This document shows positions 7,603 to 49,680 of a stretch of 55,863 bases of DNA, in pieces. The position numbers were made by a program, and so were the translations under genes. The stretch lies in assembly GCA_002687735.1 (NCBI GenBank), contig NZBD01000016.1, positions 1 through 55,863 of the forward strand, in the 5' to 3' direction. Numbering within the stretch: position 1 is the stretch's first letter; each line of letters opens with the position of its first letter. The notes beneath the pieces were generated by a model. That model searched no databases and was not told where the DNA came from. It saw only the letters and a list, made by a program, of their open reading frames with translations. This stretch comes from Candidatus Iainarchaeum sp. GTDB lineage: Archaea; Iainarchaeota; Iainarchaeia; Iainarchaeales; Iainarchaeaceae.

Positions 7603-7614
7603 TTTTAAAAATTA

Positions 7615-8550
7615 CTATTCTTCCTCTTCTTCTTCCTCTTTGAAAGCCCACTTGTTTCCGCCTGAAAGAATTTCTTCAGCTACTTCATTGTCTTCCTTAG
7701 AAAGAGGCAAACCATGCTCGTCTTTTTTCTCAGGTGAATAAATTGAATCAAGTTTTGGCAATCTGTCCTTTGCAATAAATGCAACAATTCCAAGAACAAC
7801 AACAATTACAATAAATGCAATTGGTAAAGCTAAATCTTTTGTTAAATTAAAGAAACCTGTTATAGGAGAATTTTTCTGAGCTTCTTCCTCAGCTAGTCTT
7901 GCTGCTTCCTCATCAGCAATTCTTTGTTGTTCTACTCCTTCCAGAGAAGCAATTCTTTGTTCAAAAGAACTTGTTGTTGAACTTAAAGAACTCGATGTTG
8001 AATCAACCTTTGATGAAACTGAAGAAACCTCATTGCTTAATGAAGAAACACTTGAATCAAGAGAATTTGCCTTTGCTTCTGTTGCATTAAGTTTGTCCCA
8101 AAAACCCTTGAAGTCCGCTTCCAGACCACTCAGCTTTTGGTCATACTCTCCGAGTTTACTTTCAACTTTGGTATCAACACTTGCAAGGATTTCAGATTCA
8201 TTAGGAAGATTTATTGCAGTTACATCTTTTGAATCAGAATTAACAGTTATTGTGTGAGTTCCCTCGCTTAAACCAACGTGATAAACAACTAAATCGTTCC
8301 CGAACATGTAAGCATTGGAAACATTAGGAGAAAATGCTTTGTAAATAACATCTCCACTAGAAAAAACTTCCGCAACTTTCGAACCATCAATTTCAACAGT
8401 GGCAGTTGAACCGAAACCAATATCAGCACTAAAACCCCATGAAACATTATTTGGAATTGTGGAAGGTGCATCAATTGAAACAGCACTGGTTATACCAGCA
8501 AAGCCAATTGTTAGTAAAAAAATTAACCCAAAAAGTAAACTCTTTCTCAT
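7615..8550 (-). CDS. surface protein: signal peptide, beta-rich domain, Ser-rich coiled coil, TM anchor, acidic (poly-Glu) cytoplasmic tail
   Basis: ORF 7615-8610. The likely start is MRKSLLFGLIFLL at 8550, with TTTATTAATA about 30 nt upstream. The C-terminus reads ...SPITGFFNLTKDLALPIAFIVIVVVLGIVAFIA...EEEEEEE. Confidence 0.7.
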   Translation of the reverse strand: MRKSLLFGLIFLLTIGFAGITSAVSIDAPSTIPNNVSWGFSADIGFGSTATVEIDGSKVAEVFSSGDVIYKAFSPNVSNAYMFGNDLVVYHVGLSEGTHTITVNSDSKDVTAINLPNESEILASVDTKVESKLGEYDQKLSGLEADFKGFWDKLNATEAKANSLDSSVSSLSNEVSSVSSKVDSTSSSLSSTTSSFEQRIASLEGVEQQRIADEEAARLAEEEAQKNSPITGFFNLTKDLALPIAFIVIVVVLGIVAFIAKDRLPKLDSIYSPEKKDEHGLPLSKEDNEVAEEILSGGNKWAFKEEEEEEE

Positions 8551-8631: not shown

Positions 8632-9783
8632 ATGCTTGAAAGAGTAAAGCTCAAAGATAAGGAAATAGTTCTTTTGGGCACTGCACACATTTCTCAGGAA
8701 AGCGTAAATGATGTCAAAAAGGCTATTGAAAAAGAAAAGCCTGATGTTGTTGGAGTAGAACTCGATTTACAAAGGTTCAAGCAGCTTAAACAGGGAAATA
8801 AATGGCAGAATACTAATATCGGAAAAATAATCGGTTCAGGACAAACTTACTTATTCTTGCTCACATTATTGCTTTCTAATATTCAAAGAAGTTTAGGGCA
8901 GAAAATAGGAATGAAGCCCGGAATGGAAATGATTGAAGCAATCAAAAGCGCTGAAGAAAACATGCTTCCGATTGTACTATTGGATAGAGAAGTTAACATT
9001 ACTCTGAAAAGAGCTATACAAAAAATGAGCTTTCGTGAAAAACTAAAATTGTTTTTTTCAATTGTTTCAGGTTTTTTCGGAGATGAAAATGTTAAAGTTA
9101 CCAGTGAAAGCATTGAAAAATTAAAACAAAAAGATGTTATGACTCAGCTGATGCAGCAGCTTTCAAAAGAAATGCCTTCAATCAAAGAAGTTCTTGTTGA
9201 TGAACGGGATGCGTTTATTGCAAACAGCATTACAAAAAGCCCGGGAAAAAAAGTTCTTGCAGTTGTAGGAGCCGGACATTTAGAAGGAATAAAAAAATTA
9301 TTGGGAAAGCCTGTTAACATTGCAGAAATTTCAAAAGTTAAAAAAGGAAAAGGATATATGAAAATTTTTGCATTCATAATTCCTTTACTTTTCATTGCAT
9401 CCCTTGCGTACTTATTTTTTACCAAAGGAACTGAGGTAACATTAACAGCAATTCTTTTCTGGTTCTTAGCAAATGGAATACTTTCCTCATTAGGAGTTCT
9501 GATTGCAAGAGGCCACCCTGTATCTATAATAACCGCATTTTTAGCCGCTCCGTTAACCAGCTTACATCCTTTCTTAGCAGCAGGCTGGGTTGCCGGTTTT
9601 GTTGAAGCAAAAATGAAAAACCCGAAAGTAAAGGATTTTGAAAACCTGAGAAATTTAAATTCTTTGGGGGATTTTACACAAAATCAGGTAACAAGAATTC
9701 TTCTTGTGGTTGCACTTGCGAATTTAGGATCAACTTTAGGAACAATAGTTGCATTTCCGCTGATTGCAAGCTTGTTAGGCTAA
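8632..9783 (+). CDS. TraB/PrgY (GumN-like) family protein with C-terminal membrane domain
   Basis: N-terminal LLGTAHISQESVNDVKKAIEKEKPDVVGVELD and VVGAGHLEGI are typical of the TraB family. The C-terminal part has 4 TM helices. Confidence 0.85.
   Translation: MLERVKLKDKEIVLLGTAHISQESVNDVKKAIEKEKPDVVGVELDLQRFKQLKQGNKWQNTNIGKIIGSGQTYLFLLTLLLSNIQRSLGQKIGMKPGMEMIEAIKSAEENMLPIVLLDREVNITLKRAIQKMSFREKLKLFFSIVSGFFGDENVKVTSESIEKLKQKDVMTQLMQQLSKEMPSIKEVLVDERDAFIANSITKSPGKKVLAVVGAGHLEGIKKLLGKPVNIAEISKVKKGKGYMKIFAFIIPLLFIASLAYLFFTKGTEVTLTAILFWFLANGILSSLGVLIARGHPVSIITAFLAAPLTSLHPFLAAGWVAGFVEAKMKNPKVKDFENLRNLNSLGDFTQNQVTRILLVVALANLGSTLGTIVAFPLIASLLG
9739..9783 (+). repeat. copy 1 of a 45-nt direct repeat (the genuine 3' end of the TraB-family gene)
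   Basis: GGAACAATAGTTGCATTTCCGCTGATTGCAAGCTTGTTAGGCTAA encodes GTIVAFPLIASLLG*. Confidence 0.9.
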
Positions 9784-9804
9784 GGTTTTTGATCAAACTT
9801 CCAA

Positions 9805-9850
9805 GCAGAATCTTTTGATTCTGCGTGCCACGCAAAACTAAAAGTTTTGC
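9805..9850 (+). terminator. two back-to-back perfect hairpins joined by a short palindrome, downstream of the TraB-family gene
   Basis: GCAGAATC-TTTT-GATTCTGC (9805-9824), GCGTG-C-CACGC (9823-9833), GCAAAAC-TAAAA-GTTTTGC (9832-9850). Confidence 0.45.
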
Positions 9851-9872
9851 TAGGTTTTTCTAAAAAGTTTGT

Positions 9873-9917
9873 GGAACAATAGTTGCGTTTCCGCTGATTG
9901 CTTCTTTGCTAGGGTAA
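9873..9917 (+). pseudogene. copy 2 of the 45-nt repeat: orphan, diverged duplicate of the TraB-family 3' end (14 codons plus stop)
   Basis: GGAACAATAGTTGCGTTTCCGCTGATTGCTTCTTTGCTAGGGTAA also translates to GTIVAFPLIASLLG*. It differs from copy 1 at 7 nucleotides, all synonymous. Confidence 0.85.
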
Positions 9918-9955: not shown

Positions 9956-10369
9956 ATGCCTAAAAAACCAAAACAACAAAAAAGAGGTTCAGACGGCCCT
10001 ACAAAGGTACACGGGTTTTTTTCACAAACTTATGCTAAAGCGCATGCTGAAAACGAACAAAGAAGCGAGAAACTAACGGAGATGGTTGCTGCACTTAAGA
10101 AAGCAACAAAACCTGGAGAAAGAGCATCTATTTTAAGAAAACGGATAACCTTTGCACAGCAAAACCTGTCCTCAGGAAGACTTCTAAAAAATAATGCAAC
10201 AAGATTACTTAAGCAGTATAGATCAGAACTAAGTCCTGGAGTTGCGGAGCTATTAGAACAAGTAGAAAAACACGAAGCAGACTTTGTTAAAATACTGGAA
10301 GAACAAATTACTGAACTTAAAAAAAGTTTACAAATGGAAATTACAAGACATCAAGCAGAGCAGAACTAA
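9956..10369 (+). CDS. hypothetical basic coiled-coil protein (orphan)
   Basis: 137 aa ORF starting MPKKPKQQKRG, with AGAGGT upstream. No recognisable family. Confidence 0.5.
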   Translation: MPKKPKQQKRGSDGPTKVHGFFSQTYAKAHAENEQRSEKLTEMVAALKKATKPGERASILRKRITFAQQNLSSGRLLKNNATRLLKQYRSELSPGVAELLEQVEKHEADFVKILEEQITELKKSLQMEITRHQAEQN

Positions 10370-10999
10370 TCATTTCTTCAAATAAGGCAGAACATTTCCT
10401 TTTTGTTCGGCTTCTTTAATTAGTTTTTTTGCGAAAAGCATTCTCTGGATTGAACCAATAAATGCAATAACCGCGATTAACCATAATGCAATTTCTAATA
10501 TTTTCAAATTAAAAAAATCCAAAGAAAAAATTGAAAGGAAAATTCCAGCAAGGAGTAAAAGCATTCTTTCAGAGTGTTCTCCTAAAGCAGGCCAATCGCG
10601 ATTATCCGTAATAATCACTAATGCAACCCTTGGTTTTGCATAACTATTCAAAAGAGAAAATGCAAGAGCAAAAATAGCTGCTAAAGGATGTAAAAAAGCC
10701 GTTCCAAGGAAAAGAATTATCTCAACTAATTTGTCAATCATTGTTTCGAAATAGTTTCCAAACAAAGAATCCTTTTTCTGAAGCCTTGCCACTGAACCAT
10801 CAAACATATCAATTGAAACAGCAAATAACGCGATTATAAAAGATTCTAAAAATTGCCCCTGAATAATAAAAAAAGCAGCAATTATAGCTAGTAAGGGACC
10901 TAGTAAAGTAAACAAAGTAGGGGGAAATTTGATAGCCGCAAAAGGCTTTGCAACAGCCTCAGTAAAGGCTTTTGTATGAGGTCTTAGTGATCCTAGCAT
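10370..10999 (-). CDS. CDP-alcohol phosphatidyltransferase family protein (archaeal phospholipid head-group synthase type)
   Basis: Contains the family's DxxDGxxAR core, DMFDGSVARL...G...D. The protein is polytopic, 209 aa. Confidence 0.8.
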   Translation of the reverse strand: MLGSLRPHTKAFTEAVAKPFAAIKFPPTLFTLLGPLLAIIAAFFIIQGQFLESFIIALFAVSIDMFDGSVARLQKKDSLFGNYFETMIDKLVEIILFLGTAFLHPLAAIFALAFSLLNSYAKPRVALVIITDNRDWPALGEHSERMLLLLAGIFLSIFSLDFFNLKILEIALWLIAVIAFIGSIQRMLFAKKLIKEAEQKGNVLPYLKK

Positions 11000-23182: not shown

Positions 23183-23218
23183 TTGAAATAACAAGAACAT
23201 TGAAAAATAAAAAGGAGA

Positions 23219-23248
23219 GCATTAAAGCCCTGCATTTTTCTTAAGCTC
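23219..23248 (-). pseudogene. orphan duplicate of the metK 3' end (…ELKKNAGL* plus 5 nt past the stop)
   Basis: GCATTAAAGCCCTGCATTTTTCTTAAGCTC matches 24266-24295 at 28 of 30 positions. Its reverse complement translates to GVEGELKKNAGL*, versus [11 protein letters not shown] in the real metK. Confidence 0.8.
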
Positions 23249-24265
23249 GCCTTCTACACCCAAACCAAAAGAAAACTATTTATTTGACCTGAACGCTTAT
23301 AACTACGATATAATGCATGCTAAGAGAAATGTGAGAACAAGAGGCAAAGGCTATTTTGCAAGAGAAAAAACAGCTCTCGCTCAAGTTCGAAGGCAGCAGT
23401 TCATTGCAAGAACAGGAGAATTAATTCTTGCTCAAACCGGAAGAAAAAGAATCTCAATTGGTTTTTTGGAGAGTTTGCCGAGAACAAGAAAAGAAATTGA
23501 AGCCGAACTTAGAAATCGTTCAAAAACAAAAGTTACAGAGACAAAAAGACAAATTGTAACAGAAAAGCACGGGGAAGAATTATTAGAAATACTTACGATT
23601 GTAAGGAAAGCAAATTTGGCAGCAATTTCACGTGCAGAAAAAGCTCTTGAAATACCTCCAAAAAGACGGACACAGCAAAAGCAAAGAGCAATTAATGCTA
23701 AATTAAAATCTAATCCTAAAATCAAAGATATGTGTTCAAAACTATTAGAAATAATAAAAAATGAACCTGATTACCCTTCCGAAAAAATAAGGAGGAATGA
23801 CATGGGCCTTTTGGAATTATTAATAAAAGGCATATCAGCAAACAGATTTATTGGAAGTGAAGAAGCAACAAAAAAAGCAATAAACACAAGATTAGAAAAA
23901 GCAAAAGGCAGTCAAGAAAAAAATATTCAGATCAAAAGAGCTGATGCTTACAAAAGAACTCTAGAAACACTTGGAAACAGACAGCAACTAACCCCAAGAG
24001 ATTTAGCACGGCTTTACACTGATTTACTCGAAAGCGGACAAATTGCTTCGGAAAGAAAAGCCGGAGTAACCGACACAGGAAACAGAATCGCAAAAACGGA
24101 AATAGAATTTAGAAGAACCACTTCTGAATTTATTGATTGGAAAAATGAAAGTAGTTGGACTTCTAGAGATTTTAAAAAAGTAGCTCTAAAAGCTGAACTT
24201 AGAGGATTTACATTGCCCCCAAGCATCGCAAAGCATTTACCGCCAAGAAAAAATAAAAAATAAGG
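23249..24265. mobile_element. ~1 kb segment bracketed by 30-bp direct repeats of the metK 3' end; possible integrated or inserted DNA carrying one ORF
   Basis: Direct repeats at 23219-23248 and 24266-24295. The sole cargo is the 316-aa ORF with its own TATA-like box. No recombinase was recognised. Confidence 0.3.
23313..24263 (+). CDS. hypothetical basic, helical 316-aa protein (orphan; cargo of the repeat-bracketed segment)
   Basis: Long ORF, Lys/Arg-rich at both termini (MHAKRNVRTRGKG...LPPRKNKK), convergent with metK. Confidence 0.6.
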   Translation: MHAKRNVRTRGKGYFAREKTALAQVRRQQFIARTGELILAQTGRKRISIGFLESLPRTRKEIEAELRNRSKTKVTETKRQIVTEKHGEELLEILTIVRKANLAAISRAEKALEIPPKRRTQQKQRAINAKLKSNPKIKDMCSKLLEIIKNEPDYPSEKIRRNDMGLLELLIKGISANRFIGSEEATKKAINTRLEKAKGSQEKNIQIKRADAYKRTLETLGNRQQLTPRDLARLYTDLLESGQIASERKAGVTDTGNRIAKTEIEFRRTTSEFIDWKNESSWTSRDFKKVALKAELRGFTLPPSIAKHLPPRKNKK

Positions 24266-24268
24266 GCA

Positions 24269-25435
24269 TTAAAGCCCTGCATCTTTCTTAAGTTCATCTG
24301 CCTTGTCGGTTTTTTCCCAGGTGAAATCAGGATCGTCTCTGCCAAAGTGACCATACGCAGCTGTTTTCTGGAATATTGGCCTTCTTAGGTTTAGTTCCTC
24401 AATTATTTGAGATGGTTTAAGCTTGAAATGCTTTTTCACAAGCTCCTCAATCTTTTCCTCTTCGATTTTGTTGGTGCCTTTGCAGTCAACCAAAACAGAA
24501 ACAGGATCAGCCACACCAATAGCATAAGCTAATTCAACCTCACACTTATCAGCTAAGCCTGCAGCAACAATATTTTTTGCAATATACCTAGCTAAATAAG
24601 TTGCTGAACGATCAACCTTTGAAGGATCCTTTCCTGAAAAACAACCCCCGCCATGAGCACCTTGGCCTCCATAAGTATCTACAATTATTTTTCTTCCGGT
24701 TAAGCCGGCATCCGCGACAGGCCCACCCACAATAAACGCACCGGTAGGATTAATGTGATACTTAGTATTATCATCAACCCAATCAGCAACAACAGGCTTG
24801 ACCACTTTCTCAATAATTTCCTTCTCAATCTGGTCATGGCTTACTTTTGAATCATGCTGTGTGGAAATAACCACAGTATCAACTCTAACCGGTTTTCCAT
24901 TATTGTATTCAACAGTAACCTGACTCTTACCATCAGGCCTTACCCAGTCAAGGGTTTTGTTCTTTCTGACCTCAGCCAGTTTCATTGTTAACTTATGAGC
25001 TAAAGTTATTGGCAAAGGCATTAGCTCAGGAGTCTCATTAGTAGCATAACCAAACATCATTCCCTGATCTCCGGCCCCCTGTTCCTCATGCAGACCTTTG
25101 CCCTCATCAACACCCTGAGCTATGTCAGGACTTTGTTCTGAAAGAGAAATTAAAACAGAGCAGGCATCAGAATCAAAACCATACTCTGGTTTATCGTAAC
25201 CTATTTGCCTTATTGTTTCTCGTGCAACGTTCTGTACATCAACATACGTTTTGGTTGTCACTTCTCCAAAAACAAGAATCAAACCTGTTTTGGTTGAAGT
25301 TTCAATTCCAGCCCTTGTATTAGGGTCTTCTTTGATCATTGCATCCAAAATTGCGTCGCTTATCTGATCGCACATTTTATCTGGGTGCCCCTCAGTTACT
25401 GACTCGGATGTAAAAAAATGTTTTTCTTTACTCAT
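24269..25435 (-). CDS. metK: S-adenosylmethionine synthetase, bacterial/eukaryotic-type MetK
   Basis: [34 protein letters not shown] and [25 protein letters not shown]. The ATG at 25435 is preceded by GGAGGT. Confidence 0.95.
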
Positions 25436-49558: not shown

Positions 49559-49680
49559 CTCTCCGTTTGCGTCCGGAGGTAACGCAGAGGTCCAACCCCT
49601 TGTTTGCAAGGGGTTATAACGCGACAAATGAATCTGTCCTACCGAAGGTGGACGCGTACCCCACAGCCGCAACTGTGGCT
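49559..49680. ncRNA. GC-rich structured element B between tRNA-Arg(UCU) and the argS promoter
   Basis: Hairpins at 49594-49615, 49636-49653 and 49661-49678. It is homologous to element A. Confidence 0.4.

Follow-up and report, generated by a model that had tools for sequence, protein, structure and literature searches.

A TraB-family gene end duplicated around a small hairpin element in a DPANN archaeon, with copies that differ only at synonymous sites

We analyzed a 55,863-nucleotide (nt) stretch of Candidatus Iainarchaeum sp. (contig NZBD01000016.1 of assembly GCA_002687735.1; below, the window), in which the last 14 codons and the stop codon of a TraB-family gene are present twice, separated by 89 nt. 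The two copies, c1 and c2, encode the same peptide and differ only by silent changes, and the spacer between them belongs to a family of structured, non-coding elements that are dispersed in related genomes, here called element E. The explanation we lean towards, while giving it slightly less than even chances, is one insertion of E that duplicated its target, after which the locus recombined with live TraB ends from diverged lineages. The genome that holds the window (G000) is a 552-kb, 63%-complete bin, the close relatives of which are named Candidatus Diapherotrites archaeon, a DPANN lineage. Relatives and their loci are denoted G001-G005, G014 and L072.

The duplicated gene end and the element between its copies

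The TraB-family gene has orthologues in 37 of 41 relatives. The features of the gene, its spare end and the spacer are as follows (aa, amino acids).

8632-9783, + strand: TraB/PrgY/GumN-family gene of 383 aa, taken from the list of open reading frames (ORFs); Pfam PF01963, E-value 3.4e-37; ends with c1
9739-9783, + strand: c1, the live end of the TraB-family gene (its last 14 codons and TAA), in the gene frame, its peptide matching the C-termini of orthologues
9784-9800, no strand assigned: left arm of element E, GGTTTTTGATCAAACTT, with a T5 run straight after the stop codon; identical in G005
9801-9854, no strand assigned: 54-nt core of element E, consisting of hairpin 1 (9805-9824), a GC-rich linker (9823-9833), hairpin 2 (9832-9850) and TAGG
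9855-9872, no strand assigned: right arm of element E, TTTTTCTAAAAAGTTTGT, pairing with the left arm (CAAACTT/AAGTTTG)
9873-9917, + strand: c2, the spare copy of these 14 codons and TAA, which cannot be translated from the TraB gene

The sequence of c1 is GGAACAATAGTTGCATTTCCGCTGATTGCAAGCTTGTTAGGCTAA and that of c2 is GGAACAATAGTTGCGTTTCCGCTGATTGCTTCTTTGCTAGGGTAA; their starts lie 134 nt apart. They differ at 7 of 45 nt (GCA/GCG, GCA/GCT, AGC/TCT with three changed nucleotides, TTA/CTA and GGC/GGG), and the peptide of both is GTIVAFPLIASLLG*. Relative to c1, c2 lies in the +2 frame, with an in-frame TAA at 9861-9863, 9 nt upstream of it, and no start codon from this TAA to c2. Re-reading of the sequence confirmed the positions, the seven differences and the common peptide given by an earlier first-pass annotation of the window, and the three abutting palindromes that it described are present as hairpin 1, the linker and hairpin 2.

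The duplication stands out in this genome. A fully degenerate back-translation pattern of the peptide matched the 55.9-kb window twice, at c1 and c2, against zero matches expected from 100 shuffles, and no third copy of the gene end was found in the window or in the 552-kb genome. When the whole genome was scanned for peptides duplicated close to each other, c1/c2 was the clearest case. Antisense coding was considered as the origin of the third-position pattern and ruled out, as the c1 and c2 peptides are identical in the sense TraB frame only.

The same structure occurs in the sister species G005 (89% amino-acid identity), in the order c1, 35-nt spacer, c2, with both junctions identical to those of G000 and both copies encoding GTIVAFPLIASLLG*. 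The spacer of G005 consists of the two arms, from which the 54-nt core is absent at exact boundaries, and its 35 arm nucleotides are identical to those of G000. Neither the 89-nt spacer of G000 nor the 35-nt spacer of G005 contains an ORF.

The second genome strengthens the argument that both copies derive from live gene ends. Per 45 nt, c1 and c2 differ at 7 positions in G000 and at 9 in G005, while between the species the c1 copies differ at 11 positions and the c2 copies at 6. All 33 pairwise differences are silent. Across the four copies, the first 29 nt hardly vary (0-3 differences); the last 16 nt show saturation (5-8 differences), which is also the case in orthologues generally. In the rest of TraB, the divergence of G000 and G005 at four-fold sites is 0.378; had c2 been neutral since the species split, 17 differences would be expected, whereas 6 were observed (P 2.8e-4). 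Six random changes kept the peptide and the stop codon in 73 of 200,000 trials. For a model in which each genome duplicated its own gene end and the spare then drifted, the probability that all differing codons are silent is 0.022 in G000, 0.0047 in G005 and about 1e-4 jointly.

These P values reject a neutral relic and support the view, drawn from the sequence comparison, that both copies carry the history of live gene ends. The first-pass annotation had held that a neutrally drifting dead duplicate does not fit, and this claim stands, at P ~0.02 for the window alone, ~1e-4 jointly and ~3e-4 between species. Plain target duplication with drift that looks synonymous by chance, or an artefact of assembly, is scarcely credible as an alternative. 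It gains something from the modest chance value for G000 alone and from the fact that both genomes are metagenome bins, but it has to contend with the joint and between-species values. Independent binning recovered the same structure from two species whose spacers differ in length, which also appears to exclude an assembly artefact, and the longest exact words common to c1 and c2, at 14 nt, are too short for assembler joins.

The family to which the spacer belongs is defined by its architecture of arms, hairpin 1, a GNGCC linker, hairpin 2 (CGCAAAAC..GTTTTGC) and TAGG, all of which the spacer has. Its arms pair over 7 base pairs (bp) in G000 and 10 bp in G005, which gives the terminal inverted repeats of a MITE (miniature inverted-repeat transposable element). 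The right arm has exact 16-18-nt matches in many genomes of the order. The core is unique within G000, and homologous cores with compensated stems occur in at least 11 other genomes of the order. Full-length homologues of the spacer, with arms and core at 73-84% identity, are present in distant families of the same order.

Pairing is conserved in both hairpins of the core. Of the nine pairs in hairpin 2, four have changed on both sides in a compensatory way, and all nine are intact. The pairing of hairpin 1 is perfect in each copy and its sequence varies (for example GCAGAATC/GATTCTGC, GTAAAACC/GGTTTTAC and GCAAAGC/GCTTTGC); this covariation was taken from the sequences themselves, and the MAFFT alignment stayed out of register. 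Compared with shuffles, folding of the spacer gave z-scores of -4.0 on the + strand and -5.5 on the - strand, and hairpin 2 followed by TAGGTTTTTC has a terminator-like score. Rfam 15 contained no family matching the spacer (best 20.6 bits against a cut-off of 41, E-value 1.7).

The arms form a hairpin motif with T-runs on both strands. This motif is also found at G000:C7, in long introns of tRNA-Tyr, tRNA-Ser and tRNA-Arg, and directly 3' of tRNA ends and of the stop codons of other genes. At G004:C35 (L050 / L077), the arm hairpin forms a tandem array of three units with a 48-nt period, 3' of a gene.

Other copies of element E adjoin tRNA genes, sit inside them as part of an intron, or lie at gene ends, and several of them are flanked by target duplications of 11-52 bp. 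One of these target repeats covers 52 nt including a tRNA 3' end, with a T-loop change in the spare, and another covers ~40 nt. At a copy located at a gene start, the repeat measures 16 nt as aligned and ~24 nt by eye, and the spare copy has lost its ATG. Among 30 relatives, none has E right after TraB without a duplication, which would be a possible donor state.

G000 contains a second, GC-rich hairpin family of 12 copies, one at 49660-49678 of the window and 11 at other sites, characterized by CCCACAGCCGCAACTGTGG after a variable hairpin. Several copies abut tRNA 3' ends, and gene-boundary duplications of 16-19 nt flank several copies (C8:13988, C1:11742, C15:108940). At C15 55881-55968 (minus strand, outside the window), the end KDKEISGN* of a 214-aa gene is duplicated with the second copy in-frame. 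The two copies differ at 3 of 27 nt, all silent, and the 60-nt GC-rich spacer between them ends in the CCCACAGCCGCAACTGTGG hairpin. Together, the E copies and the second family with their target duplications place the TraB structure in a general class of these genomes, namely small hairpin inserts that sit at gene and tRNA boundaries between long duplications of their targets.

Occupied and empty sites and their neighbourhood

A second copy of the TraB gene end is present at 3 of the 32 TraB loci examined. The junction pattern seen in the window was found in 2 of 196 genomes of the order, G000 and G005 only, and is absent from viral contigs and metagenome contigs. Single-copy, empty sites are present in G002, G004, G003, G014 and L072.

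The third locus with two copies is in G001 (L099, G001:C62), where an independent 28-nt tandem duplicate of the TraB end follows just after the stop codon, without an insert. Its spare copy has decayed by one 1-nt insertion and one Ser-to-Pro change. Either a lost element left this duplicate behind as its footprint, or the duplication arose with no insert involved. From this decayed relic it follows that the site has been struck repeatedly and that relics here can decay. With the TraB protein as query, the closest matches in the metagenome scan reached 60% identity at most, and the protein database gave 90%, 89% and 81% only.

The identical 35-nt arms of G000 and G005 would by themselves not point to recent transfer, because the arms in the tRNA-Tyr intron are near-identical in these genomes as well; they fit common descent. 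In that orthologous intron, which carries a variant of the TraB arm hairpin, the loop differs, with a nested hairpin in G005 that is absent in G000. The arms are evidently constrained while the loops gain or lose modules. A single original insertion is favoured by the identical junctions, the constrained arms and the slightly higher similarity of G000 and G005 across the region. Because G005 shows both copies with identical junctions, the duplicated structure probably predates the split of the two species.

The tRNA-Tyr intron gave some further observations. Across the genus its length is 45-120 nt (G000 C2:24568-24724; loci L102-L105), nested hairpins come and go in its loop, and the arm hairpin was present in four of the five species read. 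This hairpin carries T5-T7 runs, at which archaeal transcription might be expected to terminate. The tRNA-Arg GCG gene is located at C2:43526-43637.

Downstream of the duplication, two further features complete the locus.

9956-10369, + strand: orphan 137-aa ORF (ORF137), Lys/Glu-rich, between c2 and the convergent gene; context, outside the duplication
10370-10999, - strand: convergent CDP-alcohol phosphatidyltransferase-family gene, Pfam PF01066; used for synteny

Synteny of G000 with G002 and G005, which are of the same genus, is kept, at 80-86% nucleotide identity. In the single-copy relatives G004 and G003, the distance from the TraB stop to the stop of the convergent gene is 1-3 nt. G005, G004 and G003 lack ORF137, and in them the TraB end adjoins the convergent gene; among 40 relatives no homologue was found save one chance-level match, and no Pfam family scored above the cut-off. 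L072 carries an unrelated ORF at the TraB boundary, which has no homology to ORF137. An earlier suggestion that the genes downstream are integrated cargo finds no support, since G005 has the same duplication without any cargo. A decayed relic of the convergent-gene end beside c2 was considered and dropped, the alignment not being significant.

At the same boundary between TraB and the convergent gene, G002 (L003 1066-1495) has a hicB-like/hicA toxin-antitoxin pair, with the hicA stop 2 nt from the TraB stop. The HicA toxin gene was recognized with an E-value of 1.6e-13, and the match of the HicB-like partner is weak. Elsewhere in the window, a segment of ~2.9 kb present in G002 and G005 is missing at 7606-7617, between the CTP synthase gene and a gene for a 331-aa surface-protein-like product. 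The 3' end of metK (ELKKDAGL*) is also duplicated, at 23203-23248 and 24250-24295, ~1 kb apart across an orphan gene. The spare metK end has one silent and one Asp-to-Asn change and is thus a relic that is not purely synonymous.

History of the two copies and alternative explanations

To account for both the shared junctions and the silent differences, we propose the following history. The small non-coding hairpin element E, with its arms and two-hairpin core of 89 nt in total, would have entered the boundary between TraB and the convergent gene and duplicated 45 bp of its target, the upstream c1 completing the gene and the downstream c2 being left spare. The insert would be tolerated because the convergent genes lie 1-3 nt apart and the duplication leaves both genes whole. 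All occupied alleles, those of G000 and G005, would descend from this one insertion, which would explain their identical junctions. Homologous recombination would then exchange sequence between the occupied allele and live TraB ends from diverged lineages, by transfer of the occupied patch into unoccupied alleles, by replacement from unoccupied alleles, or by both. Crossovers would fall inside the 45-bp duplicated segment, of which the first 29 nt form an island of near-identity. The c1 and c2 of one genome would then be live ends from different lineages, and no selection on the spare would be needed. We infer both the insertion mechanism and the recombination history.

A mosaic signal at the locus is consistent with this proposal. 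Sites that are informative among G000, G002 and G005 are strongly clustered along the locus (275 runs versus 331 expected, P < 0.0005), and inside c1 there is a switch, G000=G005 sites giving way to seven G000=G002 sites in a row. This clustering and the switch make recombination among these lineages plausible at this place. Allelic replacement with an imprecise end, one of the two mechanisms offered by the first-pass annotation, thereby survives in modified form, as recombination between occupied and unoccupied alleles of diverged lineages.

Several points weigh against the proposed history. It is built on two occupied genomes, and its recombination part on a few dozen nucleotides, of which the last 16 are saturated at synonymous sites so that origins are unassignable; nearest-neighbour relations shift with the outgroup. 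Crossovers are required within tens of nucleotides of the element. No clear foreign tract was seen in the G005 convergent gene beside c2, and no donor lineage with E at TraB was found in the viral, metagenome, order-genome and protein collections searched. The searches for Y1 transposase, Cas1 and reverse transcriptase identified no enzyme for the original insertion. Finally, an ancient duplication with both copies under purifying selection is simpler in statistical terms and fits equally well, but has no mechanism.

Selection on an expressed c2 is the main rival, and we judge it improbable. It supposes that the duplication is ancient and that the spare c2 is under purifying selection because it is expressed, either through ribosomal bypass or through removal of the element and one repeat from DNA or RNA. 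In the bypass route, take-off would occur at the last Gly codon before the stop, the hairpin would be skipped, and landing would take place on the GGA that opens c2, giving a TraB peptide ...ASLLG followed by TIVAFPLIASLLG. Statistically this is the cleanest fit, with all 33 differences synonymous and a divergence of c1 and c2 as large as that between species. The structure is common to two species, and the layout of Gly codon, stop, stable hairpin and GGA is like that of T4 gene 60 and mitochondrial 'byp' elements. However, c2 is out of frame, has a TAA upstream and lacks a start, and the gap to be bypassed differs greatly between the species (92 versus 38 nt). In G000 the take-off codon GGC does not match the landing codon GGA; in G005 these codons are GGG and GGA, and bypass is conceivable there.

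If the stretch between c1 and c2 were spliced out or deleted, the protein would be unchanged, which leaves no need for c2. Rfam offers no match. Searching for bulge-helix-bulge introns, defined by two 3-nt bulges with a 4-bp helix between them at both splice sites and by conservation between species, gave 13 hits at TraB versus 10 in shuffles. None of these joins c1 to c2 and none is common to G005, while the same search recovered the tRNA-Tyr intron as a positive control. Expression of c2 thus has no supported mechanism. The first-pass annotation had named an ancient conserved structure with a function as the finding that would overturn its reading, and of this the first part was found, in that G005 has both copies with identical junctions.

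A rather unlikely alternative is that E and the adjacent re-coded gene end form a mobile patch, which entered G000 and G005 independently in a homology-guided or site-specific manner; this is a small-scale version of the attL/attR-like idea in the first-pass annotation. The copy nearer to the empty site of G002 is c1 in G000 (7 versus 11 differences) and c2 in G005 (9 versus 14), and variable crossover points of an incoming copy would produce such a swap. The repeated hits on the site within the genus also agree with independent entry. On the other hand, the signal from the outgroup is weak and turns around when other outgroups are taken, and a double-stranded circle of 80-134 nt is physically unlikely. 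The DNA between the copies encodes no recombinase. Searches of all six genus genomes for Y1 transposase, Cas1 and reverse transcriptase found none of the three; DDE transposases and tyrosine recombinases lay outside the genome-wide search. Neither a free nor a viral form turned up in viral and metagenome contigs. Since the family enters many targets, each with its own duplication, the first duplication must come from the target. A single viral match of the core motif, in a long ORF of a GC-rich viral contig and without flanking similarity, was read as chance.

The other mechanism put forward in the first-pass annotation, site-specific integration with c1 and c2 as attL- and attR-like ends, is not borne out. 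The copies enclose nothing but the 89-nt hairpin element, which is non-coding and occurs dispersed across many genomes, and no integrase or recombinase gene or element body was found in the 89 nt of G000 or the 35 nt of G005. One could still suppose a larger, integrase-bearing integrative element whose body was deleted, leaving attL, 89 bp and attR. Repeats of 45 bp at gene 3' ends are typical att sites for integrated elements in archaea, and also for e14 and phage 21 in icd, and the locus is variable, with the hicA/hicB-like pair in G002 and the orphan ORF in G000. Such a remnant is nevertheless highly improbable. The DNA between the copies is a complete family member that exists at many other sites, the deletion would need the same exact end points in two species, and a remnant would drift, which is rejected.

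A bolder reading can be considered, which we put forward tentatively as a possibility. Element E and the adjoining gene-end copy would act as a recombinase-free, homology-guided mobile patch, spreading from one DPANN lineage to another, diverged one at orthologous sites that are by turns occupied and empty. If so, the spare end would repeatedly be live and would stay coding, and tRNA introns would be seeded in the same way. Selfish DNA would then have a route, so far undescribed, by which it persists in ultra-compact genomes.

In compactness, DPANN genomes come close to the limit for cellular genomes, but families of tiny non-coding inserts are present in them. At the TraB locus, one such insert can be viewed in two species, which is rarely possible. 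Both abutting genes stay intact through the long target duplication. That the spare end does not decay in the manner of a relic points to either frequent recombination over tens of nucleotides between diverged lineages or an unrecognised use of the spare. With the arm hairpin, and in related genomes also the core, inside tRNA introns, the case further bears on the origin of archaeal tRNA introns.

Comparison with known systems

In the bypass elements of T4 gene 60 and mitochondrial 'byp', a Gly codon and a stop are followed by a stable hairpin and a matching Gly codon. The TraB locus differs in that the gene is complete before the hairpin, the codons of G000 are unmatched and the gap length is not conserved. 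In E. coli icd, e14 and phage 21 create two copies of a gene end, the differences between which are mainly synonymous, each copy having evolved as a live end. The copies left by these elements, and by archaeal tRNA-targeting integrases, flank kilobases that encode an integrase, whereas the TraB copies flank 35-89 nt without any gene.

Element E resembles MITEs, repetitive extragenic palindromic (REP) sequences and Rickettsia palindromic elements in being a small, non-coding, dispersed hairpin with inverted-repeat ends, located at gene boundaries, often terminator-like and without a transposase of its own. MITEs have target duplications of 2-10 bp and cognate insertion sequence (IS) transposases. 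For element E the duplications are longer, at 11-52 bp (45 bp at TraB), no cognate enzyme was found by the searches described above, and copies occur inside tRNA introns.

Gain of archaeal tRNA introns, or 'intron transposition', has reportedly been described by Fujishima et al. A likeness to the TraB case is that the same short structured sequences are present in tRNA introns and elsewhere, and that tRNA fragments lie beside insertions; here, in contrast, the host is a protein-coding gene and there is no splicing motif. Disruption of archaeal tRNA genes by mobile elements is also on record (PMC3293823).

Among phenomena already described, the nearest is insertion with long target duplication (ILTD), which was found for bacterial restriction-modification genes and for which the mechanism is unknown (Nobusato, Furuta, Kobayashi; PMC2853133). 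ILTD inserts lack a mobility gene and are flanked by direct target duplications of at least 30 bp, which align once with the empty site of relatives and sometimes overlap a gene 3' end (PMC2853133). At TraB there is likewise a 45-bp duplication, a set of single-copy relatives and an insert without an ORF. The two differ in scale and in the state of the repeats: ILTD inserts kilobases between nearly identical repeats, whereas here an 89-nt non-coding, structured repeat element lies in a DPANN genome between copies that differ at 16% of sites, all synonymous.

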